From an uncultured Desulfomonile sp. (GTDB taxonomy: Bacteria; Desulfobacterota; Desulfomonilia; Desulfomonilales; Desulfomonilaceae), in the NCBI GenBank assembly GCA_964528855.1, contig CAZGVM010000002.1:1-54116 (forward strand): a DNA stretch of 54,116 nucleotides, written 5' to 3'. The notes under the pieces were generated by a model. The model did no database searches. It was not told the origin of the DNA and saw only the letters and a program-made list of their open reading frames with translations. The translations under genes were made by a program, and so were the position numbers. How positions within the stretch are numbered: the first letter of the stretch is position 1; every line of letters starts with the position of its first letter. Of the stretch, positions 8,263-53,974 are shown one piece after another.

Positions 8263-8748
8263 CTATCCTTTTTTTTGTCTTAGTATGTGCAGACAGAAAA
8301 GGGCAGCGCCGATGCATAGAGAGCTGTCTGCGACATTGAAAGCAGGCCAGTGGATAGTCCCCACGTGAACGTCGATGAAATCAATGACCTCTCCGTGAAT
8401 GATCCGGTCGATCAGATTTCCGGACGCCCCACCAAAAAAAAGGGCCAGCGCCACCAATGACAGCAGACCATCATCATGAATCCAGAAGGTCATTCCTACG
8501 ATCACCATCAAAGCAGCCACCGAGACCAGGGTCAATACTATTCTGTTCAGAGATCCTCTGGAGCCTGAAAAAAAACCAAATGCAGCTCCAGAGTTTCTTA
8601 CATGAACCACATCCAGATAATCACTGATGACTAAATATCCATGGTTGATAGCGACATTGTTTACAATGTGACTCTTGGTGACCTGATCCAGGGCTATCAC
8701 CGATAATGATATGCCAAAAAAGATTATTGCGCGCCGCAACGTAGACAT
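8263..8748 (-). CDS. lspA: Lipoprotein signal peptidase (signal peptidase II)
   Basis: 161 aa with four TM segments and the motifs NSGAAFG and NLIDR...FNVADS. It lies immediately downstream of ileS, the classic ileS-lspA pair. Confidence 0.9.
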   Translation of the reverse strand: MSTLRRAIIFFGISLSVIALDQVTKSHIVNNVAINHGYLVISDYLDVVHVRNSGAAFGFFSGSRGSLNRIVLTLVSVAALMVIVGMTFWIHDDGLLSLVALALFFGGASGNLIDRIIHGEVIDFIDVHVGTIHWPAFNVADSSLCIGAALFCLHILRQKKG

Positions 8749-24935: not shown

Positions 24936-24952
24936 CTCAGAGTGAAACTATC

Positions 24953-26587: not shown

Positions 26588-26588
26588 T

Positions 26589-27128: not shown

Positions 27129-27141
27129 AATAATCCCTGAT

Positions 27142-29672: not shown

Positions 29673-29717
29673 GAAATCACTTCCTTTCTCAAAAACGCCT
29701 ATATTCAACCGCCTCAA

Positions 29718-30197
29718 TTATCTGGCTAAAAAGACTCCGATCATCACTCCCAGGATCAACGCCATTATGGCCATGTAATAGTTGTCCAGAGACGTAATCT
29801 TAGGGGCCGGCTGAATCGTCTCCGGCACTACTTCATCAACTATGTAATCCTTGTAACACGTGTCAACCTGAGGACAGGCCAGAACACATGAATAACATTG
29901 CTCACAATCTTCACCAACGCACGATTCAAGGGCGAAAGACGTCCTCTGTTGAGTTTTGTCAAATCTTTTTGAGTCCTTACGAAGGACAGGGCATGAATCC
30001 ACGCAGTTGCCGCATCCAAGACAGCCCTTGTCGCCTGTGATGTCTAATTCCGCGTCATTTATGTAAAGCCTGTGATAGGGTTCCATCCCTTTGGAAAGAA
30101 GCCTGAACCTGGCCACAGGAGGTTCTTTGGTCTGCAAAATAACATTTGCGACTTCTTTGTTCATCCGGTCTTTGGAACTATCCCTGGTCGTGGTCAT
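29718..30197 (-). CDS. 2x[4Fe-4S] ferredoxin-like protein with C-terminal TM tail anchor
   Basis: 159 aa with CLGCGNCVDSCP and CEQCYSCVLACP. The C-terminal hydrophobic segment is YYMAIMALILGVMIGVFLA. GGGAG lies 7 nt upstream of the ATG. Confidence 0.75.
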   Translation of the reverse strand: MTTTRDSSKDRMNKEVANVILQTKEPPVARFRLLSKGMEPYHRLYINDAELDITGDKGCLGCGNCVDSCPVLRKDSKRFDKTQQRTSFALESCVGEDCEQCYSCVLACPQVDTCYKDYIVDEVVPETIQPAPKITSLDNYYMAIMALILGVMIGVFLAR

Positions 30198-30258
30198 CTA
30201 AACGCTCCCATAACGCCCGTAAATGGCTCATCTCAGCTCCGATCCAGCTATGCCTCGA

Positions 30259-31227
30259 TTAGAATTCATGGAATTCCCTGTAAATTCCCTTGGAACGGTT
30301 GTCAAAAACCGCATTGATGTCATCCCCAAACTTGTTTGAAACTCCACGAGCCGCAAATGTCCTGGTCTCTCGTTTCTTTTTATAATTATCCAGCCAGTCC
30401 GGTGTCATTGTCGGATGGCATTTTAAACAGTTTTCCAGATTGTAGCTTTCACGGCATTCAGATTTAAATATCCTCGTCTTGTAGTGAATTTGACCGTTGT
30501 GACATCTTCTGCATGTTGATTCTGCAGGGAAAGAAACCATCCACCTCGGATTAGCCGATAACTTGTCCCAAGCCTCGTCTCGCGCTGAAGCAAACTGCCC
30601 AACGGTCATTGGCTGGATTTGACCTGCCCTGAAAGAATGAGATGCCAGAGAATGACAGGAGTCACAGGACATGTGATTCACTTCGGCGTACTTGACGTCT
30701 TTGTCGGACCTCAACGGATCCTGGTCCTTGAAACGTTCATGACATTTAGAACAGGCATTTTCTCTGGCCAACACATGCTTTCGGTGGTCCATCAGCAACC
30801 CGATTTCTCTCAGGTCGCCCGGCGGCATGTCTCTCTTGTAGACGGTCTTGCGAAAAATTGCCGCGTAATGGCAGGTCTTGCAATTGTCGCTCGGTACCCT
30901 GGTTTTGTAAAAAAGTCCCGAAATTTGAGGTTTTCTGGGATCCATTTGCGGGACAAGGTAAGAAGCTACGTGCAACAGACCACGAAATTTTGAAGCCACG
31001 GTATTTTTTGGGCTGCCCTCGATGTGACAGTTGGCGCAAGCCACCAGTTCGTGGGAAAAACCTCTGTTTTCAGCTATCAACCTGCTTTTCATCCAATCGA
31101 CATAGGCCGCCTGCTGTTGATGACAAGCCATACACGTAAAGCTCCGAACGGAAACCTCAGCGAGCAAACCTGCCACCAGCAATAACGCAACAACGCTGAT
31201 CACTATGATAGTCGGGCCCTTGGACAT
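30259..31227 (-). CDS. Membrane-anchored heptahaem cytochrome c, NapC/NirT/NrfH-like N-terminus
   Basis: 322 aa with an N-terminal TM segment. There are seven CxxCH sites (CMACH, CANCH, CKTCH, CSKCH, CDSCH, CRRCH, CLKCH). The start overlaps the upstream stop by 1 nt (TGATG). Confidence 0.8.
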   Translation of the reverse strand: MSKGPTIIVISVVALLLVAGLLAEVSVRSFTCMACHQQQAAYVDWMKSRLIAENRGFSHELVACANCHIEGSPKNTVASKFRGLLHVASYLVPQMDPRKPQISGLFYKTRVPSDNCKTCHYAAIFRKTVYKRDMPPGDLREIGLLMDHRKHVLARENACSKCHERFKDQDPLRSDKDVKYAEVNHMSCDSCHSLASHSFRAGQIQPMTVGQFASARDEAWDKLSANPRWMVSFPAESTCRRCHNGQIHYKTRIFKSECRESYNLENCLKCHPTMTPDWLDNYKKKRETRTFAARGVSNKFGDDINAVFDNRSKGIYREFHEF

Positions 31228-32255
31228 CAGGCGGTTTCCTTCCCGGTTTCAATGCGCTGCCGGATTTTTTTCTGGCGAGCCGCCTGAAAAGCGGCGGATA
31301 TGATCAGAGGGCCAGAGTTGCCAATGGGACACTTGCAGGCGCATCGACCACATCCCACACAATATTTTGAAAGTTCCATAACACGTTCATATTCCCCGAG
31401 CCTGGTCAAAAGCACCAACCCCATAGGCATTTGAACGCCTTCCACTTCTTTCAGCGGGCACACTCCTACACACGAAGCGCAGTTGTAACAGTTTATGGAT
31501 CGGCCGGTGCCTGGAACCAGCATCGACTGAAGCGCATACTCAAAAACCAAAAAAGCCGCAAAAATTATGGCCAGACTGTTCAGGGTCACGCGATCCGGCG
31601 CCTGGCCAATGAAAGTGCTTAAGTAAGCTCTTGAGAATATATTATATTCTGGAAAATCAGGAATGCCTTTTGTCAGGGCGGATTCAATCGCGTTTATATA
31701 ACCTGTGAGAGTCTCGGCGCCCCCTCGAAACATTTCAGGCTGACTGGGTCTTTCCAGCATCCCATTTTTCAGAATTTCCGTCTTGAAAGGAGAAATCTGA
31801 TTGTCCAATACCGAAATCAGGTCCGAATATTCCAGGGTCTTGATTCCCACGATCCGTCGATTCTTGACTTCTGCCTCGACTTTGATCGACCCCCTGAAAC
31901 CCTGACCCTCCCCTACGTATTTTCCATCGTGGACCTGAGAAATGCCGGCGCCCCAGGGACGCTTGGCTATACGATCCTGATCCACTGCCGTAACATTGTA
32001 GTAAGAAATGAAATAACCGGCTTTCACAACCAATATAACTATTATTAGATACCAGATATTGCGCGAGCCTGTTTTACGGTATTCCCGGTAGTAAGTGACC
32101 AGCAATGTCAAAACAATCGCCACCGTCAGGATGTACCGGCTCGAGGGAAATAATATGGCTACCAGCGCCGCATAGATTAATAGCCTGATTCCCCTGGAGT
32201 TGACCGCCTCCCACAAAAATCCCAGCGGATCACGCAATAGCCTTGACCAAGTCAT
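31227..32255 (-). CDS. Mini-NosR-like protein: 3 TM, periplasmic FMN_bind-like domain, TM, then cytoplasmic 2x[4Fe-4S]
   Basis: 342 aa with N-terminal hydrophobic helices. The FMN_bind-like core is DGKYVGEGQGFRGSIKVEAEVKNRRIVGIKTLEYSD...GGAETLTGYINAIESAL. A further TM follows, then CYNCASCVGVCP and CVGCGRCACKCP. Confidence 0.65.
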   Translation of the reverse strand: MTWSRLLRDPLGFLWEAVNSRGIRLLIYAALVAILFPSSRYILTVAIVLTLLVTYYREYRKTGSRNIWYLIIVILVVKAGYFISYYNVTAVDQDRIAKRPWGAGISQVHDGKYVGEGQGFRGSIKVEAEVKNRRIVGIKTLEYSDLISVLDNQISPFKTEILKNGMLERPSQPEMFRGGAETLTGYINAIESALTKGIPDFPEYNIFSRAYLSTFIGQAPDRVTLNSLAIIFAAFLVFEYALQSMLVPGTGRSINCYNCASCVGVCPLKEVEGVQMPMGLVLLTRLGEYERVMELSKYCVGCGRCACKCPIGNSGPLIISAAFQAARQKKIRQRIETGKETA

Positions 32256-39228: not shown

Positions 39229-40656
39229 ATGAAGCCAACCATAGAACGTAATTCCCTGGAACGCATTGTCCTTAACTCGATCAGCGAGCACCACATGATT
39301 GAGCCTGGGGACAAAATAGTGGTCGCTGTCTCGGGCGGGGTAGACTCGGTGGCGCTTTTGTGTGTTCTCAATTCACTGTTTCCAGAAATGAATCTCGAGT
39401 TGATAGTGGCGCATGTTAATCACAATTTGCGCCCCGGTTCTGTTAAAGACAAAGATTTTGTTGAAAATCTTGCATCCAGATTACACCTGGACTTTTATCA
39501 TCTCGACGCAAATGTCCGGGCATATTCGGCGGAACATCATTTGAGCCTGGAAGAGTCCGGTCGTATAATCAGATATTCTTTTTTCCGAGAATTGCTTACA
39601 GACTTGAAAGCCAACCGGGTAGCCACGGCTCATCATGTTGACGACCAGATTGAAACTGTCTTGCTTAGATTAATTCGGGGAAGCGTCACTACCGGATTAA
39701 GAGGAATCCCAGCCGTAAGAGGAGCAATAATCAGGCCATTCATCAAAGTTGAGAGATCACAAATTGTTGAATACTGCAGACAAAAAGGTTTGAATTACAT
39801 AAATGATGAAACCAATTTTGAGATAGTGGCCGATAGGAACTTTATTAGAAACAGAGTTCTCAAGGAAATTGAAACAAGATTTCCTCAATACCGAAAATCT
39901 GTTTTAAGGACTACGGAACTTCTGAGTCGCGATGAGGAATTCCTTGAAAAAAAGGCCGGCCACCTCTACGACCTTGCAGTCAAGAGACGAGATCAGGAAA
40001 TTGTTGTTGACGTAAAACATATTTCCGGAGCTGACGATGCAATAGGCGCCAGAGTTCTAAGATCAGCCTTTTACGATTTAACAGGGCCCGACCTGAGGTT
40101 GACACAAATCAATCTCGATCAATCACTTTCTCTGGCCAGGAGCCCAAAGCCCTCTTCCAGCATTGATTTACCAGGATTTTTAAATATCAGACGTGATTAT
40201 GATAAATTAGTTATTAGCAAAAAATCGGAGGAACAAGTTGAGTCGTATTCATACACTATAAACGGTCCCGGAATTCTTGAGCTACCATCAGCATGGGGTA
40301 CACTGACTTTTACGTTACTGAAACATTTGCCTGATGAAGAAAAAATCAGGATAGACACTGGAAAAGCCTATTTTGATTTGGATTCCCTGGAATATCCTCT
40401 TATAGTCCGTTCGTTCATGCCGGGAGACAGACTGGAAGCCTGGGGTGTAAAAGGCTCCACAAAAGTCAAAAAAATTTTTATTGATAAAAAAATATCCTTG
40501 AGCTTGAGGCGGAGAATACCCCTGATCATTAAAGATGATAAAATATTGTGGATAGCAGGTGTTAGAAGAAGCCGTCTCCATGGTCTCACATCTCTATCGA
40601 AAAGGATTCTGGAGATAACGTGGATCAAGAATTCGAATCCGGAAAAAACCAAATGA
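39229..40656 (+). CDS. tilS: tRNA(Ile)-lysidine synthase
   Basis: PP-loop VAVSGGVDS is present, with TilS-like central and C-terminal domains. I set the start at ATG 39229 because the ORF-track TTG at 39160 lies inside the terminator hairpin. Confidence 0.85.
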   Translation: MKPTIERNSLERIVLNSISEHHMIEPGDKIVVAVSGGVDSVALLCVLNSLFPEMNLELIVAHVNHNLRPGSVKDKDFVENLASRLHLDFYHLDANVRAYSAEHHLSLEESGRIIRYSFFRELLTDLKANRVATAHHVDDQIETVLLRLIRGSVTTGLRGIPAVRGAIIRPFIKVERSQIVEYCRQKGLNYINDETNFEIVADRNFIRNRVLKEIETRFPQYRKSVLRTTELLSRDEEFLEKKAGHLYDLAVKRRDQEIVVDVKHISGADDAIGARVLRSAFYDLTGPDLRLTQINLDQSLSLARSPKPSSSIDLPGFLNIRRDYDKLVISKKSEEQVESYSYTINGPGILELPSAWGTLTFTLLKHLPDEEKIRIDTGKAYFDLDSLEYPLIVRSFMPGDRLEAWGVKGSTKVKKIFIDKKISLSLRRRIPLIIKDDKILWIAGVRRSRLHGLTSLSKRILEITWIKNSNPEKTK

Positions 40657-41242
40657 ATTCTTATGAGAACAGAAAAGGCTTGATCGGTTATGAGCAAGCG
40701 CTCAGCCTGGCATTTGAAAACGTGCGCCCCATGCCGGAAGAGTTATGCGCTATAATCGATGCCTTGGGACGAGTGGTTTCAAGAGACGTCAAAGCCGTCG
40801 TAAATTTGCCATCGAGGGATTCCTCGCTGAAGGATGGTTATGCCGTCTTGTCTTCGGACATTCAAACAGCGGGACCATCCAATCCCGTTTTCCTCTTGTC
40901 AATCAGGGTGAATTGGTCACGCCTCCCGGAGCCGGTCTGTTGGCGGCTGGTGGAATTTCTAGTGTGCCTGTAGTGTGCTTACCCAGGGTTGCGCTTCTGG
41001 CCACCGGTGATGAAATTATAGCTCCTGGAAAACCACTTGGCTCTGGAATGGTCTATGCCAGCAACGTCGCAATGCAGGAAGCATGGTTGAGGACTTTAGG
41101 CATCAATTGCCGCACAGAAGTTAGCAGAGATTCTTTGGAAATGCGCAGCAGAAGACTGAGCGCAATGGGAAAAACAAAAGCCCTTGTTAAAATACCGGAG
41201 GGAACGGAAAAGCTGACGGCCGGAACTAGGGTCAGTTTCTAG
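40653..41242 (+). pseudogene. moeA: Decayed molybdopterin molybdotransferase gene (moeA remnant)
   Basis: The ATG overlaps the tilS stop (ATGA). An N-terminal MoeA-like stretch is present (...LPSRDSSLKDGYAV...). After ~40885 the homology continues in another frame (...LLAAGGISSVPVVCLPRVALLATGDEIIAPGKPLGSGMVYASN...), then jumps to the C-terminal end (...ALVKIPEGTEKLTAGTRVSF*). About half of a normal ~400-aa MoeA is missing. Confidence 0.7.
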
Positions 41243-42269: not shown

Positions 42270-43760
42270 TTGATTCTGCTCGCAAAAGGAAAAATTCTTT
42301 ATAGCGTATTGAATACAGCGCTATTGTTAATGTTGGTCACACCTCCGGTATGTTTTGCTTCCAATGACTACCTGAACCTGAACCTGAACACAAACAGCGA
42401 CGGTATTATCGCATCAACTTTTAACATTTCCGAAATAGACCGCAATTCTCGATCTAACGTGGTTGATGATGATTTGGGGACCGTCGGAATCAAACTGTTT
42501 GATGAGGTCATGAGACTAATTCAAAACCACTATGTGTCCAATTTTCCCAAGAAACATATTCTCAAAGAGACTGTCGAGAAACTTGTTTTTTCTTTAGATC
42601 CCCTTTGCGCAGAGAAGATTCCTGGTTTCGATCAATGTTTTGACACACCGGAGGCATGTTTTGCTGCAACTTTGTCCAAAATTGCCAAACGCTGCAAGAT
42701 TAGGGAACAGCAGGTAACTCTGATGGCGCTAGAGATAGTTCTCAGGGATCTGGACCAGTATTCCTCGATACTTGACTCCAAAATGATCAATGAACTCAAG
42801 ATCAGCGCGGAAGGAAAGTTTGGAGGAATAGGCATGGTAGTGGCTTCCAAAAATGGAGCATATGTAGTCATTTCCTCAATTGAAGGGTCTCCGGCTCATG
42901 AGGCGGGTATAAACTCCGGAGACATTATTCTCGCCATTGATGGCAAGACGTTGCAGGGATTACCCCTGAATGAGTCTCTGGGACTTGTTCGAGGTCCGTC
43001 AGGATCTCTTATTCGCATCAAAGTCATGAATCACCTGACCGGTAAAATTCGAAACCTTGAAATGCGTAGAAAGATTATTCAGGCGACTCCGGTAAAATAC
43101 ACCATTATGAATCACGGAATCGGTTATATAAGAATCATAAACTTTCAGAACACAACGCGGGTGGAACTGGAAAAGGCTCTAAAATCGCTTCTGCAGAGTT
43201 CGCAGGGGCAGTTGTCTGGTCTGATTCTGGATCTGCGTGATAATCCGGGCGGGCTGTTTACCGAGGCCATCCGTGTCGCCGAGTTGTTTGTGAAAACAGG
43301 AGTGATAACATCACTTCAGGGAAAAGACACAAGATTCAGCAGGGTATTTAGTGTAAACGCCGATGGTCCATTTTCTGATCTGCCGATTGTCGTCCTTATA
43401 AACAAGGGCTCGGCAAGCGCCTCTGAAGTTTTGACCGGAGCCTTGTTGGCAAATCCAAAAGTTTTGGTAATGGGAGAGCGCAGTTTCGGAAAAGCGTCTG
43501 TTCAAAACATTTTTCCACTGCCCGGGTCAATGGCTTTGAGACTTACTACCGCTCATTACTTCACTTCGGATGGACGCGATATCGAGGGCAAAGGACTGGA
43601 GCCCGACATTCCGTTAACCAATCATCAGCTCCTGGATCAGGACAAGACAAAAAACGCGGATATTAGTGAAATTTTACGGGATCCCGAAGTGAACATGGCC
43701 ATGAATCGATTACTATCACCGAATTTTCCAATAGAATTAGTATTTTCCAATCTTTTTTAA
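42270..43760 (+). CDS. ctp: S41-family carboxy-terminal processing peptidase (PDZ-containing)
   Basis: Signal peptide and a PDZ-like GIGMVV...GSPAHEAGI..GD.I..IDG. The S41 core has LDLRDNPGG and NKGSASASE. TTG start. Confidence 0.85.
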   Translation: MILLAKGKILYSVLNTALLLMLVTPPVCFASNDYLNLNLNTNSDGIIASTFNISEIDRNSRSNVVDDDLGTVGIKLFDEVMRLIQNHYVSNFPKKHILKETVEKLVFSLDPLCAEKIPGFDQCFDTPEACFAATLSKIAKRCKIREQQVTLMALEIVLRDLDQYSSILDSKMINELKISAEGKFGGIGMVVASKNGAYVVISSIEGSPAHEAGINSGDIILAIDGKTLQGLPLNESLGLVRGPSGSLIRIKVMNHLTGKIRNLEMRRKIIQATPVKYTIMNHGIGYIRIINFQNTTRVELEKALKSLLQSSQGQLSGLILDLRDNPGGLFTEAIRVAELFVKTGVITSLQGKDTRFSRVFSVNADGPFSDLPIVVLINKGSASASEVLTGALLANPKVLVMGERSFGKASVQNIFPLPGSMALRLTTAHYFTSDGRDIEGKGLEPDIPLTNHQLLDQDKTKNADISEILRDPEVNMAMNRLLSPNFPIELVFSNLF

Positions 43761-43934
43761 AATGCTTTTTGTAGTTATTAAACATAAAATTCTTGAGCTA
43801 CTTAACAAATCAATATGTTTACATTTTATTCTTGATTTTATAATGCTTTTTGTGTATGGTTTGCTTGCCTTTCAAACGAAAGGCTGTTGATTGTTTATTT
43901 TAAATTGGTTTAAATCAAGGAGGTTAACGGGGCA

Positions 43935-44429
43935 ATGAGCTTGCCGACAGGCCATGTTAGACGTCTGTTTCTGGGTTTCACTTGCTCTATCATGTTTCTG
44001 GTTGTATTCGCAGTGTTAGTGGCCTACAACACGGAAGCGGAGTCAGCCAGTTATATTAAATCAACGGTAGATGAGTATCCTCTGACCATAGGGATATACA
44101 CGGCTAACCCGGAGGAGACGATAACATTCTACAAGAAACTGGGGTTCCGTTCCTCAGAAGGTCTTTCGAAAGGCTTGGATGTCTTTTCGATGGAAAAAGA
44201 AGGAACACCCTACAAACTTGACATTCTTCACAACCGTTATGTCAGCAAGGCGGAACTTTCTGGTGGCGTGTCAGGAATGAGCTTTAAAGTTAACGACTTA
44301 TCCGAATCAGTTCGTGAGCTTCAGAAAAAAGGTCTTCGATTTGTCGAGACAGACGGTCAGAGAGACGGTGTAAACTACGCATCTCTTAGTGACCCAAACG
44401 GGATAAGTATAAAACTTTTTCAACCTTAG
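43935..44429 (+). CDS. Secreted/anchored VOC (glyoxalase-fold)-like protein
   Basis: 164 aa with an N-terminal hydrophobic segment. AAGGAGG lies 9 nt upstream. The glyoxalase-like beta-alpha-beta pattern is seen by eye only. Confidence 0.45.
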   Translation: MSLPTGHVRRLFLGFTCSIMFLVVFAVLVAYNTEAESASYIKSTVDEYPLTIGIYTANPEETITFYKKLGFRSSEGLSKGLDVFSMEKEGTPYKLDILHNRYVSKAELSGGVSGMSFKVNDLSESVRELQKKGLRFVETDGQRDGVNYASLSDPNGISIKLFQP

Positions 44430-44511: not shown

Positions 44512-45573
44512 TTATCGCCCCAGTTCACCTTTAACCTTTTGGATATCTTCCGCCTCCAACCTGAATGGAAAGTTTCTAATGTCTTTGCCTGGTTTTTCGT
44601 TGCCGTAAGGTCTGTTACAGGCTGTTCTTCCGTCAAAGCCCGGACATCCTGATGTCTCGAAAGGCTCACCTGTATTTATAATTTCATCAAGTTGGCGATC
44701 ATCAACACCAAATTCAATGATTACATCTGAGTGGTCAAAAGTCATTTTATCAAACGAGGACTTGTCATTATCAATCAGCCACCTGGCCAACTGGATTCTT
44801 CGGTAGACCTCAACCGGAGGTGACTGAACAGATTCCATGAGCGAGCCTTTCTCGGGAAAAAAAGAAAAAAGATGGGTAAAGCCGCCCATACCATGGGCCC
44901 TATCGATGGTCTGGACCAGTTCTCTTTCCGTTTCCCCCAATCCACAGATCAGATGAACTCCGGACTTGTTTTTTCCAAACACATCCAGACTCTCCTCGTA
45001 AACCCTCCAGTAGGTATTCCATTTATGAGGTCCACTTACACCTGTACCTCTGAGTTTGTCGAACAGAGCCTCCGTGGCGCAGTCTACGGCCACTCCTATC
45101 CTGTCTGCGCCGGCTGCCTTCAGATTTTTCAGATCATTTTTCTTGAGCACTGTTGGTGAAATCAGGAGTGAAACCATTTTTTTGGTGTTGGAAACCACTT
45201 TTTCACATATATGCAGGGAATCTTTTACACTGTTCGGGTGGGTCACCATCGAGACGCACACCCGGCTGACTCTATCGGGAGTCTGTTTTATGGCTTCTAT
45301 AACATCCTCCGTCTTAAAGGTCTTCCACGGAACCCTGATAAAACTCCCTCCATTTTTCACCTGTTCCTTTTCTGCGGCCAATCCGCAAAATGAACAGTTA
45401 GCCCGGCAACCGTTCTTGTATGTCAACAGGAGATTGATGCAGCCTAGGCGGGCATTACGATAAAACCAGCCACCCTCGAATTTCAGTGTCATGGCGGCGG
45501 CTAAAGACAGCCTGACGTATTCCGGGCTGTGGTCGATCCGAGTCTCAACAATCTTTGATGGAACCGAATTCAT
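44512..45573 (-). CDS. Radical SAM protein, LipS1/LipS2-type lipoyl synthase candidate
   Basis: 353 aa with CRANCSFC (CX3CX2C). Additional Cys residues are available for an auxiliary cluster. It is the last gene of the ligase / FAD oxidoreductase / rSAM / rSAM run. Confidence 0.65.
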   Translation of the reverse strand: MNSVPSKIVETRIDHSPEYVRLSLAAAMTLKFEGGWFYRNARLGCINLLLTYKNGCRANCSFCGLAAEKEQVKNGGSFIRVPWKTFKTEDVIEAIKQTPDRVSRVCVSMVTHPNSVKDSLHICEKVVSNTKKMVSLLISPTVLKKNDLKNLKAAGADRIGVAVDCATEALFDKLRGTGVSGPHKWNTYWRVYEESLDVFGKNKSGVHLICGLGETERELVQTIDRAHGMGGFTHLFSFFPEKGSLMESVQSPPVEVYRRIQLARWLIDNDKSSFDKMTFDHSDVIIEFGVDDRQLDEIINTGEPFETSGCPGFDGRTACNRPYGNEKPGKDIRNFPFRLEAEDIQKVKGELGR

Positions 45574-45643: not shown

Positions 45644-46564
45644 TTAATTAACCGCACAGCATGAGCTTTCGTATTTAACTTCAAGTCCCATGTTTTGCGC
45701 CAGTTCCACAGCCTTGTCGGAGGCCAGCGCGATGGAATTTACTCCGGCTTTTACGGCTATGATATCTACAGCAAGCCGGTATTTTCCGCGAGGTCTGGCG
45801 CACCCGAGTGATGCCAGCGTTTGAGGCATTTGAAAACGCGCTTTAACCAGAAACCTGCCTACTTCGTCGGGAGTCGGCGGAACAACTTTTTCCATGGGGG
45901 TTTGTTTCAGAGGATTTAATACCACCACCACATATTTTTTGATGGGATAACTTTTTATGATTTCCAGCGCCCGATATTCACCTAAAATCTCTCCAAAATG
46001 AAGACCCATGATAATATGAGGCGCGATTTCTATTCCGGCATGGCTCAAAGCATCCATGGTTATCATGATGGAACTCACGCCGTCTTTTAAATGATAAACT
46101 TCAAGAGCAGTTTTTTCTGAGCCTATGACGTCCACGAGAGCCTGGTCAACTCCGGCGGCCTTGAGAGCTGAAGCTGTCTTTTTGTCAACCTGACCCGGGT
46201 GGACTGACACCTTCAAATTCGTCCGTTTTTTTATCTCAAAAATGGTGTCGGTGAAACGCTCCCAGGGTAAAAATCCATTCTCGTCACACCCCCCGGTCAA
46301 AAGGATTCCTATGTCACCACGTTTCTGGGCATTAAGTGCGAAGTTCAACAATGCGTCTGGAGAGTTCAGTTCCGGCATGGATTGCAACAAAACTCCTTTG
46401 CAATGCTCGCAGCTCAACGAACAGTTTCTTGTCGTTATCGAAACGGCTTGGTATTTACCCCGAATGCCGTTGTAAACAAACATGCCCGGTGAATAAACCG
46501 TCAGAATGGAGCCGTGATTTGAACGCGACAAATTCCAAGATTCAGCAAATTGATCTTCATTCAT
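45644..46564 (-). CDS. Radical SAM protein, LipS1/LipS2-type lipoyl synthase candidate
   Basis: CSLSCEHC (CX3CX2C) is present and the C-terminus ends ...SSCCAVN. I set the start at ATG 46564 (MNEDQF), 1 nt after the upstream stop. The ORF-track start at 46606 would overlap by 41 nt. Confidence 0.65.
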   Translation of the reverse strand: MNEDQFAESWNLSRSNHGSILTVYSPGMFVYNGIRGKYQAVSITTRNCSLSCEHCKGVLLQSMPELNSPDALLNFALNAQKRGDIGILLTGGCDENGFLPWERFTDTIFEIKKRTNLKVSVHPGQVDKKTASALKAAGVDQALVDVIGSEKTALEVYHLKDGVSSIMITMDALSHAGIEIAPHIIMGLHFGEILGEYRALEIIKSYPIKKYVVVVLNPLKQTPMEKVVPPTPDEVGRFLVKARFQMPQTLASLGCARPRGKYRLAVDIIAVKAGVNSIALASDKAVELAQNMGLEVKYESSCCAVN

Positions 46565-46565
46565 G

Positions 46566-47660
46566 TCAAAAGTCCCGGACACGTTTTCTGTAACCCTCAA
46601 AAGCAATCCAGGTTTGCGAGCAAATGGACTTCATGTCATGGCCTGGCCACCTGTCCATCATCAATTTTCTCTTGGATCTCGCGTGATTGAGAACTCCGGA
46701 ATATAGACCCCTTATTTCGGACTCGTATGTGGACAAGTAATTCATGTTAGCATTTTTTATGGCCTTGACTGCCGCTATTCCGGCCATTTCTCCGGAAATC
46801 ATTGCCTGCGGCGCTCCAGCTCCGGTTATGGGATGAGTCAAACCGGCAGCGTCCCCGACAAGCGCCACATTTCCCCTGACCAGTTCAGACCTGATTCCTG
46901 AAACAGGTATAAGTCCTCTGGACCTGGACAGAATTCCCGGTGTCACCAAACCCATGTTCCTGAACATGCCCAGGAAAATTTCCAAAAGCTCAAAAGGACG
47001 ACTCTGTTTGTTCGCCAGCAGGCCCAGACCAAAATTTGCGGACATGCCTTTTGGAAAGAGCCAACCATAACCGTATGTTATAGATTTGTGAAAAAATATG
47101 ACTGTTCTGTCCAATTTTTTCGCCAAAGGGATCTGGTACTGAATACCTAAAAGGAATTCCGGTCTCCAGGATGATAAAGACTTGCCCACAGGTGAATTTG
47201 AACCGTCAGCGCCTATCACCACTGTGGATTCGGCCTCTATTTCCCGACCCCTGTGTCTGAAAATCAACCGTTGGTTCTCCAGTTTTAATAGTCTGGAGTC
47301 GCTCAAAACCTCAGCGCCATTCGATGCGGCTTGCTTTGCCAGGTTCATGTCCAGGGATTGCCTGTCAATCATAAACCCTTCCGACCTGGTTACGGCGCCT
47401 TCACCGATCTCTGCGTTTGCCGGAAAGCTATCCTCCGGGATTATTACCGTTTCCATCGAATCTACGGACTGGTCAATGATTCGCTCATTGATCCGGAATT
47501 GAGTCACGAGTTTTTTGGGTATGAACTCTCCGCAGTGAGGTTTTTCACCGATGCGTTGCTTTTTGTCGATCAACAAAACGCTCAACCCATGCCCGGCGAC
47601 TGTAGATGCGGCCACAGAACCGGCAGGACCGGCCCCGACAACAATCACATCATATTTCAT
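46566..47660 (-). CDS. Geranylgeranyl-reductase-family FAD-dependent oxidoreductase (LipT-like)
   Basis: Motifs present: MKYDVIVVGAGPAGS, GADGSNS, YGYGWLFPKG and LVGDAAGLTHPITGAG. ATG 47660 lies 1 nt after the ligase stop. An alternative ATG is at 47675. Confidence 0.75.
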   Translation of the reverse strand: MKYDVIVVGAGPAGSVAASTVAGHGLSVLLIDKKQRIGEKPHCGEFIPKKLVTQFRINERIIDQSVDSMETVIIPEDSFPANAEIGEGAVTRSEGFMIDRQSLDMNLAKQAASNGAEVLSDSRLLKLENQRLIFRHRGREIEAESTVVIGADGSNSPVGKSLSSWRPEFLLGIQYQIPLAKKLDRTVIFFHKSITYGYGWLFPKGMSANFGLGLLANKQSRPFELLEIFLGMFRNMGLVTPGILSRSRGLIPVSGIRSELVRGNVALVGDAAGLTHPITGAGAPQAMISGEMAGIAAVKAIKNANMNYLSTYESEIRGLYSGVLNHARSKRKLMMDRWPGHDMKSICSQTWIAFEGYRKRVRDF

Positions 47661-47661
47661 C

Positions 47662-49230
47662 CTATTTTTCTGCATTTAGACGCCTGAGTGTCTTCTGTAT
47701 CAGATCCATGTTCAAAAAAGTCTTGTTGTCGAATCGTCCTTTATATGCCTGAGAGCCTTTGCCCAAATCATAGCAGGTGGTAGAATCAAGATTGATCAGA
47801 ACGCCTGCTGCATCTATCTGAGACATGTCAGCTTGATGTTTGGCAAAAAAGGCCTCGCAGCAGGAACCCACGTATATACCATTTTTACCGGCGCATTTTG
47901 ATTGTATAGTATCCATGAGGTGCTCAAAACTTTGCACCGTCAATGGCTCAAGATTGTATTCCCTGGCTACGTCATAGCAAGTTCCAATTTCACATTTCCC
48001 ACACTCAGAACAGCCAGGAATGTCTCGATATTCACAGTCAAGATTTTTTGAGCAGTAGGGAAGCAGAAGCCACCTGGGAATGCTTTTGTCTATTTCTTCA
48101 GGCTGAAGATTTACAAAAAAAAGCTCGTTGGCGTCTTTAAGACTCATTTGATCATTGACTATCCTGAGTCTTTTAGCCGCTTCGGCTACTGCCGAGGCGA
48201 TCTCGGCAGGTTGAACATCAAGAACTCGTCCTTCATAAGTGTCTAAGAAACTTAAAACTGCCTGATAAACAGTCTGTGGATCCGGTTTGAGACCCACGAG
48301 GCTTGCTTCCAGATCCCGGGACAGTTTTGCCGGGATGGAGAAAAAGTCACCTGCAATAAGGGCGAGCTGAATTCTTTTTCCGCCGGGAGACAGCCAAAGA
48401 TGAGTCCTGAAAGTTCCCCCTGCCGTTTGCTTTATTGACCTGGCAGGGTCTGATTCATGAGCAGGTCTGGATTTTGAATTTACCCATTCATCACTTTGAT
48501 AATACGCCGTTTCATTTTTGAGACGCTCCGATTCTCCGGATGTCAGGCCGGCGACCGAGAGGGTAATTCCCAAGCTCTTTTCGAACGATTCGGTCAGGGC
48601 ATTTTTAACCATAGAAAGTGATGGCGCAGAATCAATCAGATCATTGAGAAAACATATCCTGTCCATCAGGGATTCTATTTCTCTCTTTTTAAGCTTTTCA
48701 ACCGGAACTCTGAGCGCCTTTAAAAATCTGTCCACTTCATTTTCTATGAGAATTGTGCCCTGAAACATCATTGCTCCGGAGATTGCGACTCCCCCGGTGC
48801 CAGATATTTTTCTGCCATTAATTTCGATGTCGTTGCGTGGCCTGAACTTTGCTTCAACCCCCAGGCTGGATATCCCTTCAGCCGCTATTGAACAGATACG
48901 TATCAGGATGGATTCAAAGCTTCCCGTAAATGGATGGGATCCCGGCCGGCCAAAAAATTCCCAGCCAAGACCGGATTCCTGAAACAGAATTCCGCCACCG
49001 CCGGTAATCCTGCGGTTAATATCAATCCCGTGGTCCCTGCAAAAATCCCGACGTATTTCCAGTTCCACATCCTGGTTGTATCCGACAAGGGCTGCGTCCG
49101 GTTTAAATTGAAGGAACCTGAATGTCGTGGGGGAATTTCCGGAAGCGACCTCCTCGAGGATGATCATGTCCAACGCCATGTTTTCGGCAGCGGATAAAGA
49201 GCCTGTATCCAACAAACGAATTTCTTTCAA
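47662..49230 (-). CDS. Lipoate-protein ligase (LplA catalytic plus accessory domains) fused to a C-terminal Cys-rich DUF116-like domain
   Basis: 522 aa. The N-terminal BPL/LplA fold has ...AENMALD..., RRITGGGGI and INGRKISGTGG (Lys). The middle region is LplA C-terminal-like. The last ~150 aa are WLLLPYCSKNLDCEY..IPGCSECGKCEIG...YVGSCCEAFF...STTCY. TTG start. Confidence 0.75.
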   Translation of the reverse strand: MKEIRLLDTGSLSAAENMALDMIILEEVASGNSPTTFRFLQFKPDAALVGYNQDVELEIRRDFCRDHGIDINRRITGGGGILFQESGLGWEFFGRPGSHPFTGSFESILIRICSIAAEGISSLGVEAKFRPRNDIEINGRKISGTGGVAISGAMMFQGTILIENEVDRFLKALRVPVEKLKKREIESLMDRICFLNDLIDSAPSLSMVKNALTESFEKSLGITLSVAGLTSGESERLKNETAYYQSDEWVNSKSRPAHESDPARSIKQTAGGTFRTHLWLSPGGKRIQLALIAGDFFSIPAKLSRDLEASLVGLKPDPQTVYQAVLSFLDTYEGRVLDVQPAEIASAVAEAAKRLRIVNDQMSLKDANELFFVNLQPEEIDKSIPRWLLLPYCSKNLDCEYRDIPGCSECGKCEIGTCYDVAREYNLEPLTVQSFEHLMDTIQSKCAGKNGIYVGSCCEAFFAKHQADMSQIDAAGVLINLDSTTCYDLGKGSQAYKGRFDNKTFLNMDLIQKTLRRLNAEK

Positions 49231-49528: not shown

Positions 49529-50080
49529 TCATTTTGCGCCGAGATCCAATGCAGGAGCGGCGTCAAGAGCCTTTATGACCATTTCGGTAAGATCCGGCAT
49601 GCCGGATGAATAAATCATGGTCTCTTTCAGGAATACGGCGCTATAGCCTTCATCTTTGGCTACTTTGTCTATAATCTGCTGAATCTGATTCATTATGGCC
49701 GTCTGAATGGCCTGTTGCTGAACCGCCAGCTTGCTTCTCACGGCCTGCTGTTCCGACTGCATTTCCTGATATTTCTGTGTCAGGTCATTTTCAAGTTTTT
49801 CTTTCTCGGCAGGTTTCAGCGTGTCTTTACCTTTTTCAAGGTCTGCTTCGAGTTTTTTGGCTTCGGTTGTAAGGCTCTCCATTTTGGGAGAAGCTGCAGT
49901 CTGCATTTTGAGCAATTGCTCTACCGCTACTTTGACCTTGTTGGATTTGGATGAAACATCGGTAAGATTAATTTGGGCAAACTTGGCGGACTGCGCCCAA
50001 CTGACATTAACGGTCGTTAAACACGCAGTAAAAACGATCAAAGTAATCAAGCAACCGAAAACCATACCTGTTTTTTTCAT
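49529..50080 (-). CDS. skp: Periplasmic chaperone Skp/OmpH
   Basis: 183 aa with a signal peptide and a long Lys/Glu/Gln-rich coiled region (typical OmpH). GAAAGGA lies 7 nt upstream. Confidence 0.8.
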   Translation of the reverse strand: MKKTGMVFGCLITLIVFTACLTTVNVSWAQSAKFAQINLTDVSSKSNKVKVAVEQLLKMQTAASPKMESLTTEAKKLEADLEKGKDTLKPAEKEKLENDLTQKYQEMQSEQQAVRSKLAVQQQAIQTAIMNQIQQIIDKVAKDEGYSAVFLKETMIYSSGMPDLTEMVIKALDAAPALDLGAK

Positions 50081-50308: not shown

Positions 50309-53300
50309 TTAGCGGACAGGTGTTTGTTGTTCATTAGAGCGTTTGGCTTCCATGACATTCTGGATCGTCTGAAAAAGCTGGTTTCTTGATATGGGTTTAG
50401 AGACATATGCGTCCATTCCGGCTTGCAGACACATTTCCTCGTCTCCTTTTACGGCGTGGGCGGTCATGGCAATTATGGGAATATTTCTGAGGCTAATGTT
50501 TTCCATGCCTCTAATCATCCTGGTAGCCTCGAGGCCGTCCATTTCCGGCATTTGCACGTCCATCAGAACAAGATCAAAGTCATCTGATGCTACTTTTTCC
50601 AAAGCTTCCAGTCCATTCTTGGCGACAACCACCAAATGTCCCTGTTTTTGAAGAATGAGAGTGGCAAGTTTCTGGTTAACCAGATTATCCTCGGCTAGAA
50701 GTATTTTCAGTGGCTTGACCGGGACAAGGCTCTCCACACTGACCGGACTCGCGGTTTTTTCCCGGGACAATTCACGCGGATTCAGGGTCATAACTATTGA
50801 ATGTAAAAGATCACTTGATATCAATGGCTTTCGCAAGTACGCCTGAACCCCTAGTTCCTGACATCTTTCACACGATCCTGAAGGATTGGCCGATGACATT
50901 ATTGCAATCTTCAGGTCCGACCAGTAGCTGTTCTTGCGTATAATGTCGGTTAATTCAAATCCATCAATGTCGGGCATCATGACATCGATCAATGCTATTC
51001 TGAATTGTTGATCATCGTTAATTGATGAATTCAGAATTTCCAGCGCTGTCACGGCAGAATCGGCAGTTTGCGGGAGCATCCCCCACTTGGTGAGCATTTT
51101 TTCAAGAATCATCCTGTTTGTATCGTTGTCGTCAACCACCAGTATTCTCACTTGATTGATGACGCTCAAATATTCATCCAGGGGTGGGCTGGATTCAGAA
51201 GGCCTGGTTACCATCCTGCACGTAAAATGGAATTGGCTGCCCTCACCCAATCGACTCTCTACCCATATCTTCCCTTGCATCAAATCCACCAACTGGGAGG
51301 TTATCGCAAGCCCCAAACCGGTTCCACCATATTTTCGGGTAGTAGATGAATCAACCTGGGTAAACGGATTAAAAATAATCTTTGTTTTTTCCGCCGGTAT
51401 TCCTATTCCGGTGTCATTTATATCAAACTGTAACTCCACTTGATCATCAATTTCCGAAATCACACTTACATTGACCAGCACCTCTCCCGTTTCCGTAAAT
51501 TTTATGGCGTTTCCTATCAGGTTAATCAGTATTTGACGCAGCCGACCGATATCTCCCGTGACTACCTCCGGAACATCTTCGGAAACGGACAATATGAGTT
51601 CGAGTTTTTTTTGACCGGCTCGGACGGCCAGGGATTGCATTATTTCTTCGAGACGATCGCGAAGGTGGAAATCGCTAAAATCGAGGTCGAGTTTGCCGGC
51701 CTCTATTTTCGAAAAATCGAGGATGTCATTAATTATTGAGAGAAGGGATTCGGCCGCATAGAGCACCAGATTCATGTGCTCTCTCTGCTCCTGGGTTAAA
51801 TCCGTGTCCAGGGCGAGTTGAGTCATGCCCAAAATACCATTCATGGGTGTTCTTATTTCATGACTCATCACAGCCAGAAAATCGCTCTTGGCACTATTGG
51901 CTTTTTCGGCGTCCTCTCGGGCTTTGATAAGTTCCGATTCAATCAGCTTGCGTTGTGAGATGTCCCTGATAATGCCTATGAATGATATCTCATTGCCTAG
52001 TTTCATTTCACTGACTGAAATTTCAATGGGGAAAGATACGTTATCTTTTCGAATGCCAAAAAGTTCCCTGGTCTTGCCTATGATTCGATATTCCCCGGTT
52101 TCCAGGTATCTGCGTATGTATCCATCGTGGAGGTCGCTGTGCGGTTGCGGGACTATGATTTTGATGTTCTTGCCGATCATTTCATTCGCGCTGTGTCCGA
52201 AAATTCTCTCAGCCGCAGGATTGAATGTCTGAACGATTCCTTTCTCGTCAATGGTTATGATGGCGTCTACAACATTTTCCACTATTGAGCGGATTCTGTG
52301 CTCACTCTTTACAACCTGTTCCTCTGCTATACTTCTTCTCTGGTCATTTCGATAGGCCTGAATGATGCTCGCGCAAGTCGCAAGATAAGGATTGAGGAAG
52401 TCTATTACGTTCTGACCGTAACCTCCGGGCCTGTTTGCAATGCCGATCATGCCCACAAAAACGTCTGCGGCGTGAAAAGGTAAACCTAGGAAAGCTCTCA
52501 GTTCAGGATGTCCTTCAGGTAGTCCGCCTTTCCTGGGGTCATTCAGAGGATCATTTGATATAACAGGTTTTTCTGTCGTAATGACACGACCGAACAGTGT
52601 TTTTAAATTGCGAAATTCAAGACCTTCGTTGGAATATTTTTCATAGAAAGCCCTGGTGGTGTCATTCCAGGCGATATTTGTGACTGCGAATGTCTTTAGA
52701 TAAGGTTGTTCATTTTGATCATAGAGAATTTCCCCGATGAATCCGTACTCACTTCTGGTCAGCTCCAGCAAGGCGTTGAGCAATTCTTCAAAAAGTTGGC
52801 GAGGATTGGGTCTAAAAAAATATCTGTTCTGAGCCCTTGTCAATGCGCTCAAAAGCTTGTTGCTGTTCAGCAAATCCTGCTCGGCTCTTTTCCGATCAGT
52901 AATGTCCTGGCTTATTTTGAGGCAGTTCGAAATCGAGCCATCAGCAAGTTTGATTGGGCTGAATGACGCTAGTTCCCAGTAAGGTTCATCGTTCACTAAA
53001 GGCTTTCGGTATAATTCGCCGGTCCATTCAGACCCCGAGTCCATAATCTGTTTAATGAGTGAGTTTTCATTTTCATAGGAGGAGTCTAACTGGTCCATCG
53101 TTTTTCCGGAAACGTCTGAAAAGCTAAACCCGGTAACCTGGCTAAATTTTGGGTTTACGTATTCTATCTTTCCATTTAGATCAGTTATCATAACCACATT
53201 GGGACTTTGTTCGACAGCACGCGAAAGTTTTCTCAACTTGTCCTCGGTATTCACCCTGTCAGTCAAATCCCTCAGCGTCCCTGAAGTCCCTACAACCTTT

Positions 53301-53974
53301 CCGCCATCATCAAATGTCAACCGCGCAAACACCTCTACCCAACAGCGCCCCTTGGTTGCGTGAAGATAACGGATTTCGTGTCTGCAATAATCTTTGAGTC
53401 CTGAAACAAGCGGTTCGAAAAGCTTCAGGTTCTTTTCACGATCAGCGGGATAAACATAATCCAGGAAGCTTTTCCCTACACTCTCCTGGATTCCAAACCC
53501 GGTAACCTCCTCCCAGGCCGGATTCAGAAAGGTCCACAAACCCTCTAAGTCCGTCTGGAAAACAACATCCTTGAGGTTGTCCACCACGTTTCTGTATTGC
53601 TTGTTGCTCTCACGTAGAGCGCGCTCCACAGATTCTCTCTGGTCGATTTGTTTCTTCAGTTCTTCATTGATTAAAAGCAGATCACCGGTTCTTTCCTCGA
53701 CACGTTTTTCAAGATCCCGTCTGGCGATCTCCAATTCGCTTTCTATTTTTTTCCGCTGACTGATGTCTCTGATCACGCCGGCAAATAAAGTTTCCTCACC
53801 GGTTTTCCAGGTCGAAATGGAAAGCTCTATTGGAAATTCGGAACCATCCTTGTGTAATCCGGACAACTCCAGGAGCATCCCAATTACAACTGATTCGCCT
53901 GTATCCATGTGTCGCTTCATTCCCGACAGATGAAGCTCCCGGAATTTCTGTGGCATTATCTGTACTAAATTCAT
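50309..53974 (-). CDS. Hybrid sensor histidine kinase (multiple PAS, GAF, HisKA, HATPase_c, two receiver domains)
   Basis: H-box SHEIRTPMNG is present, with N/G boxes GNAIKFT, DTGIGI and GGTGLGL. The two REC domains carry DVMMPDIDG and DVQMPEMDG. The first ATG (53974) falls inside a PAS domain. The frame stays open upstream to an in-frame TGA at 54089-54091, so the 5' end is unresolved. Confidence 0.85.
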   Translation of the reverse strand: MNLVQIMPQKFRELHLSGMKRHMDTGESVVIGMLLELSGLHKDGSEFPIELSISTWKTGEETLFAGVIRDISQRKKIESELEIARRDLEKRVEERTGDLLLINEELKKQIDQRESVERALRESNKQYRNVVDNLKDVVFQTDLEGLWTFLNPAWEEVTGFGIQESVGKSFLDYVYPADREKNLKLFEPLVSGLKDYCRHEIRYLHATKGRCWVEVFARLTFDDGGKVVGTSGTLRDLTDRVNTEDKLRKLSRAVEQSPNVVMITDLNGKIEYVNPKFSQVTGFSFSDVSGKTMDQLDSSYENENSLIKQIMDSGSEWTGELYRKPLVNDEPYWELASFSPIKLADGSISNCLKISQDITDRKRAEQDLLNSNKLLSALTRAQNRYFFRPNPRQLFEELLNALLELTRSEYGFIGEILYDQNEQPYLKTFAVTNIAWNDTTRAFYEKYSNEGLEFRNLKTLFGRVITTEKPVISNDPLNDPRKGGLPEGHPELRAFLGLPFHAADVFVGMIGIANRPGGYGQNVIDFLNPYLATCASIIQAYRNDQRRSIAEEQVVKSEHRIRSIVENVVDAIITIDEKGIVQTFNPAAERIFGHSANEMIGKNIKIIVPQPHSDLHDGYIRRYLETGEYRIIGKTRELFGIRKDNVSFPIEISVSEMKLGNEISFIGIIRDISQRKLIESELIKAREDAEKANSAKSDFLAVMSHEIRTPMNGILGMTQLALDTDLTQEQREHMNLVLYAAESLLSIINDILDFSKIEAGKLDLDFSDFHLRDRLEEIMQSLAVRAGQKKLELILSVSEDVPEVVTGDIGRLRQILINLIGNAIKFTETGEVLVNVSVISEIDDQVELQFDINDTGIGIPAEKTKIIFNPFTQVDSSTTRKYGGTGLGLAITSQLVDLMQGKIWVESRLGEGSQFHFTCRMVTRPSESSPPLDEYLSVINQVRILVVDDNDTNRMILEKMLTKWGMLPQTADSAVTALEILNSSINDDQQFRIALIDVMMPDIDGFELTDIIRKNSYWSDLKIAIMSSANPSGSCERCQELGVQAYLRKPLISSDLLHSIVMTLNPRELSREKTASPVSVESLVPVKPLKILLAEDNLVNQKLATLILQKQGHLVVVAKNGLEALEKVASDDFDLVLMDVQMPEMDGLEATRMIRGMENISLRNIPIIAMTAHAVKGDEEMCLQAGMDAYVSKPISRNQLFQTIQNVMEAKRSNEQQTPVR

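Follow-up and report, generated by a model that had tools for sequence, protein, structure and literature searches.

A lipoate-protein ligase carrying a conserved, cysteine-rich DUF116-like domain in a LipS1/LipS2-type lipoate gene cluster

The sLpl(AB)-LipS1/LipS2(-LipT) route of lipoate assembly was described by Tanabe et al. in 2023 (PMC10332631). LipT was proposed as the electron source for LipS1 and LipS2, and the Thioalkalivibrio genes lipS1-slpl(AB)-lipT-lipS2 alone lipoylate LbpA in E. coli (PMC10332631). LipS1 and LipS2 need an external reducing system and use their auxiliary clusters as the sulfur source (Neti et al. 2022, PMC9585515); with ferredoxin, ferredoxin reductase, and NADPH they complete about 1 to 1.5 turnovers in vitro (PMC9585515). 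We analyzed a stretch of 54,116 nucleotides, here called the window, from an uncultured Desulfomonile sp. (contig CAZGVM010000002.1). It carries the same gene set as that pathway, namely, a two-domain ligase, a LipT of the geranylgeranyl reductase (GGR) family, and two BioB-like radical S-adenosylmethionine (SAM) proteins with a Cx3Cx2C motif. The described bacterial pathway uses a plain ligase, whereas the ligase in the window is longer by about 140 residues, a stretch that bears eight invariant cysteines and resembles the Pfam family DUF116 (PF01976). Two further differences are that most hosts here are anaerobes of the Desulfomonilaceae and Desulfarculaceae and not, as for the described pathway, sHdr sulfur oxidizers and that the LipS1 and LipS2 proteins score just under the equivalog cutoffs (226.5 of 230 bits and 229.9 of 270 bits).

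For the LipS1/LipS2 route, established between 2020 and 2023, we know of no demonstrated physiological electron donor and no cluster-restoring factor, and to our knowledge DUF116 is among the oldest Pfam families without an assignment. A conserved, cysteine-rich domain on the ligase, always encoded ahead of LipT, is a candidate for one of these missing pathway functions.

The fused gene and its linkage to lipoate genes

The fused gene appears in the open reading frame (ORF) list of the window as a single, uninterrupted ORF with a TTG start, and the N terminus of its product, MKEIRLLDTG, agrees with the family consensus. An earlier interpretation that had only the letters and their ORFs to go on, here called the sequence-only reading, had described an Lpl ligase with a cysteine-rich, DUF116-like C terminus in one ORF, and the 522-amino-acid frame and its Pfam domains bear this out. 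The peptide quoted in that reading, WLLLPYCSKNLDCEYRDIPGCSECGKCEIGTCYDVAREYNL...GSCCEAFFAKHQ...NLDSTTCYDLG, lies in the C-terminal part of the protein. Nucleotides 47662 to 48150, to which the extra region had been placed, agree with residues 361 to 522 plus the stop codon and thus hold the linker and the DUF116-like domain (Table 1).

Residues 1 to 360 are predicted to form a complete two-domain Lpl(AB) lipoate/octanoate-protein ligase because they align with two-domain LplA and retain an invariant lysine motif. The full-length AlphaFold2 model, built from 69 homologues (predicted local distance difference test [pLDDT], 85.9; predicted template modeling score [pTM], 0.82), matched the two-domain LplA1 structure 8cri_A over 354 columns in Foldseek (E = 1.3e-25; target-normalized TM-score, 0.85). 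The ligase part matched LplA structures (E = 1e-25), and the catalytic lysine K141, in the motif GRKISGTGG, is invariant in 69 of 69 sequences. The accessory domain gave a weak Pfam match to PF10437 (Lip_prot_lig_C) at residues 270 to 328. The ligase lineage is a divergent one, since it misses the NCBIfam equivalog cutoffs (TIGR00545, 133 bits against 280; NF053751 LplAB, 92.6 bits against 550).

The C-terminal region matched PF01976 over profile positions 41 to 143 of 155 with 36.7 bits (gathering cutoff, 25) and an E value of 3.6e-9, rising to 40 bits when the domain was scanned alone. A profile match of residues ~370 to 522, which the sequence-only reading had named as one check to make, was therefore obtained above the curated threshold. 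The match is not due to chance, since all 29 diverged relatives of the domain that were scanned also match PF01976 (best E, 9.7e-13).

We scanned genomes for the domain, taking one genome per species, and found it encoded in 195. Locus counts come from the best 80 of these, which belong to Desulfomonile/Desulfomonilaceae and Desulfarculaceae and whose six-frame ORFs were searched with the window proteins. Ligase and domain lie in one ORF in 78 of the 80 loci, the remaining two being cut by contig ends. Fusion-bearing isolates include Desulfocarbo indianensis and Dethiosulfatarculus sandiegensis, and the closest of the best 80 loci (88 to 89% identity) are in a metagenome-assembled genome (MAG) labeled "uncultured Syntrophaceae bacterium" and in a Desulfomonile sp. 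MAG. In a protein search we obtained more than 120 representatives of clusters, 503 to 599 amino acids long and 55 to 88% identical, nearly all with both Pfam domains. The DUF116 part averages 70% pairwise identity, the catalytic domain 68%, the accessory domain 57%, and the linker 47%. Purifying selection thus constrains the DUF116 part no less than the enzyme itself.

An exhaustive search of 1.84 billion representative proteins with a profile of 23 C-terminal domains yielded only 194 matches at E ≤ 1e-3. Among the 150 listed of these 194, 86 are at least 480 amino acids long, and a detectable Lpl(AB) region is present in 85 of the 86. Judging by the source names, the fusion reaches beyond Desulfomonilaceae and Desulfarculaceae into Gammaproteobacteria (a Chromatiales bin), Zixibacteria, Chloroflexi, and Thermoplasmata/Methanomassiliicoccales. 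The carriers identified are, without exception, anaerobic or sulfur-metabolizing lineages in which Fe-S proteins abound. The fusion is real and maintained by selection. Database labels read either "DUF116 domain-containing protein" or "lipoate-protein ligase A," so that many entries are annotated for one half of the protein only.

The genes downstream of the fusion lie on the same strand and encode a LipT-like flavoprotein, with weaker similarity to FixC besides its GGR-family match, and the LipS1-like and LipS2-like proteins. The latter are the adjacent radical SAM proteins named in the sequence-only reading: the LipS1 and LipS2 models are the best matches of the two proteins, both slightly under cutoff, and both proteins contain Cx3Cx2C (CSLSCEHC in the LipS1-like protein, which also has a C-terminal SSCC, and CRANCSFC in the LipS2-like protein). 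The first ATG of lipT overlaps the end of the fused gene by 14 nucleotides and the second lies 1 nucleotide past its stop codon (junction, ATGCAGAAAAATAG), an arrangement in which the two genes are translationally coupled. LipT is encoded immediately downstream of the fusion in 72 of the 72 loci with enough sequence (70 scored automatically; L011 and L016 added by eye from the ORF listing), LipS1 is downstream in 66 of 70, and LipS2 is downstream in 56 of 66. The association with lipoate genes that the sequence-only reading had suggested is thus tight for the fused clade. In two relatives a GcvH gene immediately precedes the fusion, and in one a dihydrolipoamide-dehydrogenase-like gene lies upstream, which points to the usual lipoyl acceptor proteins. 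In the protein P0201 (locus L090, 208 to 2685), the only triple fusion among the 150 representatives listed, Lpl(AB), DUF116, and LipT form a single polypeptide of 825 amino acids, and a radical SAM gene, TusA, and DsrE2 follow downstream.

Table 1. Positions in the window of the fused gene, its predicted domains and conserved cysteines, and the lipoate genes that follow it
Feature	Position	Strand	Remarks
Whole fusion gene (Lpl(AB) ligase, linker, DUF116-like domain)	47662..49230	-	522 aa; stop codon 47662-47664
LplA/B catalytic domain, aa 14-217	48580..49191	-	PF21948 LplA-B_cat, E 6e-38
LplB-like accessory domain, ~aa 251-360	48151..48480	-	Weak PF10437 match and structural alignment
Linker, aa 361-384	48079..48150	-	Least conserved segment (47% mean pairwise identity)
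DUF116-like Cys-rich alpha/beta domain, aa 385-522	47665..48078	-	PF01976; AlphaFold2 model
PF01976 match portion, aa 386-488	47767-48075	-	Pfam
Cys-rich loop after strand 1: C393, C399, C407-x2-C410-x2-C413	47992..48054	-	
Cys-Cys pair C457-C458, end of strand 3	47857..47862	-	
C486 in TTCYDLG, loop after strand 4	47773..47775	-	
LipT-like FAD oxidoreductase, geranylgeranyl reductase family	46566..47675	-	TIGR02032, 204.7 bits (cutoff 158.8)
LipS1-like radical SAM lipoyl synthase subunit	45644..46606	-	NF053742, 226.5 bits (cutoff 230)
LipS2-like radical SAM lipoyl synthase subunit	44512..45573	-	NF053743, 229.9 bits (cutoff 270)

The fused domain and classical DUF116 proteins

We aligned the domain with 117 representatives that share about 30 to 45% identity with the window copy and found eight cysteines conserved in 114 to 117 of them. 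C393, C399, C407, C410, and C413 are each kept in 116 or 117, C457 is kept in 114, and C458 and C486 are kept in all 117. Neither C446 nor C418, the would-be fourth ferredoxin cysteine, is conserved in this alignment. AlphaFold2 modeled the domain from 106 diverse sequences with high scores (pLDDT, 94.3; pTM, 0.89) as a four-stranded beta-alpha repeat with a short extra N-terminal strand ahead of it. The successive elements are a strand (385 to 391), a helix (414 to 424), a strand (428 to 432), a helix (435 to 446), a strand (452 to 457), a helix (459 to 470), a strand (475 to 480), and two final helices. The predicted fold is a flavodoxin/Rossmann-like alpha/beta sandwich. Cysteine placement was read from the secondary structure of this model, in which C393 ends strand 1, C399 to C413 lie in the long loop between strand 1 and helix 1, C457 and C458 end strand 3, and C486 follows strand 4. 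All eight would thus sit on the C-terminal edge of the sheet, which is the cofactor-binding edge of flavodoxin/Rossmann-like folds.

None of 547 Foldseek matches of the model in the PDB was significant (the best, at E = 0.15, were SIS, receiver, and TIR domains), and the domain profile matched no PDB sequence at E ≤ 10. Pfam gave a weak Fer4 match in 1 of 29 members (E = 0.0045), and a test for a bacterial-type ferredoxin found neither a CxxCxxCxxxCP repeat nor a Foldseek ferredoxin match. The domain lacks a hydrophobic segment (maximum 19-residue hydropathy, 0.65; whole protein, 1.49). With eight invariant cysteines at the predicted cofactor-binding edge, the suggestion in the sequence-only reading that the domain is a metal or Fe-S module is plausible.

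Classical DUF116 proteins (COG1852, arCOG02078) have two N-terminal transmembrane helices followed by a globular domain and occur with sulfite/nitrite reductase genes, with an ArsA-type ATPase, and fused to polyprenyl synthetase (PMC5898192). They were described with at least six conserved cysteines, including CxxCxxC, and Makarova et al. (2015) predicted a flavodoxin-like fold from HHpred and an electron transfer role (PMC5898192). The fused domain, with its eight conserved cysteines including CxxCxxC, fits this description; its model agrees with the HHpred fold, it passes the PF01976 threshold as the classical proteins do, and the two share the pattern LLP[YH]C...C...CxxCGxC...C...C.

The classical member that we compared in detail, found by a weak tblastn match in Fusobacterium vincentii (L091, 5827 to 6357), is a protein of 176 amino acids that scores 157 bits against PF01976 and has one N-terminal hydrophobic segment. 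It adjoins glpF/glpK/dhaK-like genes (named from translations), and at this one locus no lipoate genes lie beside it. (The record, NZ_CP084075.1, is labeled "plasmid pSB055A" but is 2.1 Mb long, essentially unannotated, and evidently a chromosome.) Seven of the eight cysteines pair between the fused domain and the Fusobacterium protein (hhalign E, 5.8e-5); the latter has Ala-Cys where the fused clade has C457-C458, which makes C457 the extra cysteine. Classical members are stand-alone proteins of about 180 to 280 amino acids with one or two N-terminal transmembrane helices, whereas the fused domain has no anchor and is carried on a ligase. It starts at PF01976 profile position 41, the ligase taking the place of the N terminus and no transmembrane segment being present, and the fused clade scores 23 to 50 bits against 157 for the one classical member. 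The fused-clade profiles retrieved no classical DUF116 proteins from the 1.84 billion representative proteins.

By these sequence comparisons, the fused domain is a distinct, anchorless clade of PF01976, so that guilt by fusion holds for the clade and not demonstrably for the whole family. The proposal that DUF116 acts in lipoyl assembly is hence upheld in part: the fused clade is linked to lipoate genes, but the extension to the family finds no support, as classical members are membrane anchored, occur in other gene contexts, and are not reached by the fused-clade profile. The statement that DUF116 has no assigned function agrees with our literature search, which yielded only the 2015 electron transfer prediction. 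Full-text searches for DUF116, COG1852, PF01976, and arCOG02078 returned that paper and one figure legend, which lists a DUF116 gene near isoprenoid genes, and no publication on the Lpl(AB)-DUF116 fusion was found. DUF116 is not mentioned in the lipoate pathway papers searched, including that of Tanabe et al. and its supplementary text (PMC10332631), and that supplementary text does not mention the fusion-bearing taxa.

Possible roles of the domain in lipoate assembly

Given the architecture, conservation, gene linkage, fold class, and cysteine placement described above, we favor the idea that the domain is an Fe-S relay between LipT and the radical SAM proteins LipS1 and LipS2, held on the ligase, and put its probability at about 0.4. 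The invariable adjacency of DUF116 and LipT, together with the triple fusion, favors a pair of flavoprotein and Fe-S carrier, and the eight invariant cysteines with their CxxCxxC triad make Fe-S binding the most plausible use of these residues. The 2015 prediction of electron transfer for DUF116, the proposal that LipT is the electron source, and the ferredoxin partners of many GGR-family enzymes also speak for this idea. In the scheme that we infer, from the bound metal to the route of the electrons and the assembly of a complex, the eight cysteines would bind one or more Fe-S clusters; their number fits two [4Fe-4S] clusters, one of which could lie on the ferredoxin-like C407-x2-C410-x2-C413 triad. 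LipT would take two electrons from NAD(P)H, and the DUF116 clusters would pass them singly to the radical SAM [4Fe-4S] clusters of LipS2 and LipS1. These two enzymes would then place sulfur on C8 and C6 of an octanoyl group that the ligase half had just attached to an acceptor protein of the GcvH or LbpA type. With the relay tethered to the ligase, acceptor, reductase, and synthases would be held close to one another.

Several points weigh against this idea. The cysteine geometry is taken from topology only, and neither the PDB profile search nor Foldseek matched the domain to a known ferredoxin or Fe-S protein. The Thioalkalivibrio operon with its plain ligase works in E. coli without the domain (PMC10332631), so the domain must be accessory or lineage specific, and the role of LipT is itself only proposed (PMC10332631). 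In locus L088, a fused gene in chemotaxis/flagellar surroundings has no LipT, LipS1, or LipS2 gene nearby. Finally, the linkage to LipT fits a cluster-repair or sulfur-mobilizing role equally well.

The fused protein of locus L088, P0261 (L088, 6001 to 8013; L089, 5323 to 7335), is one of a few in which a CdhB-like PF02552 domain (carbon monoxide dehydrogenase/acetyl coenzyme A synthase [CODH/ACS] epsilon subunit family) is appended to Lpl(AB)-DUF116. Another is P0220 (1117 amino acids), which appears to hold two ligase catalytic domains, and P0249, probably a truncated gene call, also carries the CdhB-like domain. In the literature the CdhB epsilon subunit is described solely as a partner of the Fe-S-rich CODH alpha subunit, against which it packs, and as support for an Fe-S role these fusions are weak at best.

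The main rival to an electron relay is a donor of clusters or sulfur, a role that we consider possible but unlikely. The domain would hold an Fe-S cluster, or sulfur derived from a persulfide, for transfer and would rebuild the auxiliary [4Fe-4S] clusters of LipS1 and LipS2, LipT supplying the reducing equivalents for reassembly, by analogy with NfuA for LipA and NFU1 for LIAS. A regeneration factor of some kind is needed, since LipS1 and LipS2 consume these clusters within about 1 to 1.5 turnovers (PMC9585515), and NFU1 is reported to support the turnover of human LIAS (PMC9585516). The eight invariant cysteines would suit such a donor, as would the fusion of the domain to the enzyme that holds the substrate, in the same operon as the synthases. 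The domain, however, does not resemble Nfu, IscU, or A-type carriers, and all-cysteine sites buried at a sheet edge would resemble permanent redox clusters rather than transferable ones. TusA/DsrE sulfur transfer genes do adjoin two relatives, but adjoining sHdr-type sulfur oxidation genes explain them. Strict pairing with a flavoprotein, covalent fusion included, is also more typical of a reductase and its ferredoxin.

The domain might instead be a structural or regulatory zinc domain or a redox-sensitive cysteine switch. It would then transfer neither electrons nor sulfur but offer a platform on which LipT, the LipS proteins, or the acceptor protein could dock, or it would sense the redox state and gate the ligase. 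Cysteine-rich domains with CxxC pairs often bind zinc, homology to Fe-S proteins was not detectable, and the pTM of 0.82 for the full-length model suggests a defined arrangement of domains. We nevertheless consider this improbable: eight invariant cysteines, among them a CxxCxxC triad and a CC pair, at the predicted cofactor edge are more than a structural zinc site requires, the carriers identified all belong to anaerobic or sulfur-metabolizing, Fe-S-protein-rich lineages, and linkage to a flavoprotein suggests redox chemistry.

Less probable still is an Fe-S-dependent thiol/disulfide reductase in the manner of the HdrB CCG domain or ferredoxin:thioredoxin reductase, in which electrons from LipT would keep the mercapto-octanoyl or lipoyl group reduced or free it from a cluster adduct. 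A CC pair with further cysteines recalls CCG-type noncubane cluster sites, the domain is located on the enzyme that binds the lipoyl arm, and Hdr-like genes neighbor the archaeal relative. Yet Pfam matched CCG in none of 29 members, HdrB structures are absent from the top 50 Foldseek matches listed (none of all 547 being significant), and the one classical DUF116 protein compared lacks the first cysteine of the pair.

We give practically no credence to the last alternative, raised as a possibility by the sequence-only reading, that the fusion is an assembly or frameshift artifact or a decaying appendage, with two genes wrongly joined: the domain does appear as a separate short protein in some database entries, but every one inspected is itself split by a frameshift or N gap, the single frame recurs in 76 of 76 species genomes with room upstream, cultured isolates included, the extra domain is highly conserved, and the 78 of 80 loci with one ORF refute the idea.

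Variant loci, surrounding genes, and known systems

Five of five short entries inspected as stand-alone domain genes (L001 and L084 to L087) proved to be the fused gene split by frameshifts or N gaps. L001, L085, and L087 (ENA ERZ25039xxx, JGI contigs) contain many frameshift-split genes, for example, HGD-D in three pieces and RNase E/G in four, and such contigs give rise to spurious "stand-alone DUF116" and "LplA" proteins in databases. L084 (Methanomassiliicoccales archaeon, CP070739.1) holds an archaeal copy of the domain at 6001 to 6550 that abuts an N gap. DsrE2/TusA/DsrE and polyprenyl synthetase genes lie upstream of it and two HdrC/HdrB-like (Fer4 plus CCG) pairs and a giant HdrA-like gene lie downstream, with two paralogous proteins of ~225 to 230 amino acids, without Pfam matches, in between.

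Tandem ligase genes are found in L083 (Dethiosulfatarculus sandiegensis, NZ_AZAC01000018) at 5749 to 6879 and 6819 to 8447; the upstream copy is a plain Lpl(AB) ORF of 377 amino acids without DUF116, and the Lpl(AB)-DUF116 fusion follows. This suggests a division of labor between a plain and a domain-bearing ligase. Apparent double-ligase fusions in L081 and L082 were discarded, as the long stop-to-stop ORFs hold only one ligase copy.

The lipoate operon of the window is flanked by an OmpH/Skp-like gene upstream (49529 to 50080, minus strand) and by glyoxalase-like and S41 peptidase genes downstream (42270 to 44429, plus strand). These genes are syntenic with the operon in many Desulfomonilaceae-type loci and were found in none of the Desulfarculaceae-type loci L058 to L083. 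Farther off, a respiratory-type cluster at 22644 to 32255 (minus strand) encodes a molybdopterin oxidoreductase (763 amino acids), an NrfD-like membrane subunit, a 4Fe-4S dicluster protein, a FAD_binding_2 flavoprotein (584 amino acids) with a ferredoxin-like partner, a NapC/NirT-type multiheme cytochrome c, and a 342-amino-acid protein with a weak Fer4_10 match. Two overlapping ORFs of 117 and 165 amino acids at 40620 to 41242 (plus strand) resemble, by eye, an N-terminal and a C-terminal fragment of a MoeA-type molybdopterin molybdenumtransferase and could be a frameshifted or truncated gene. The 1221-amino-acid protein encoded at 50309 to 53974 (minus strand) resembles a multi-PAS/GAF hybrid histidine kinase when its translation is read by eye, with an H-box, SHEIRTPMNGI, and two receiver-like segments.

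The data allow a broader but doubtful idea, that DUF116 proteins are unrecognized flavodoxin-fold Fe-S carriers and dedicated partners of GGR-family flavoproteins. If this is true, LipT and the domain would need only NAD(P)H to reduce LipS1 and LipS2, the ligase to which they are tethered would become part of a lipoyl assembly line, and the occurrence of classical DUF116 proteins fused to or near polyprenyl synthetase and isoprenoid genes would be explained. With the fusion, the anchorless branch of DUF116 gains a testable role as a probable Fe-S helper in lipoate assembly.

Flavodoxin and flavodoxin reductase reduce radical SAM enzymes in E. coli. In humans, FDX1 is the dedicated electron donor of LIAS (PMC10462841). 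These systems would follow the same logic as the relay proposed here, in which a flavoprotein passes electrons from NAD(P)H to a small redox protein that specifically serves the radical SAM lipoyl synthase, but their carriers are unrelated in fold and sequence and are free, whereas the putative carrier here is covalently joined to the ligase. GGR-family enzymes are often paired with a ferredoxin from the same locus, and the GGR of M. acetivorans requires one (PMC10821996). As in those and in FixC/FixX-type pairs (PMC10821996), LipT is always found beside, and once fused with, a cysteine-rich domain; the GGR systems have a 2x[4Fe-4S] ferredoxin as the partner and an isoprenoid as the acceptor, whereas here the partner is a DUF116-type domain and the presumed acceptor is a radical SAM protein. 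NfuA/NFU1 and IscU may have in common with the fused domain a role in sustaining the turnover of a sulfur-sacrificing lipoyl synthase but are similar to it in neither sequence nor fold. We regard the fusion as a useful lead and as a variant of the known lipoate system rather than a new type of system.

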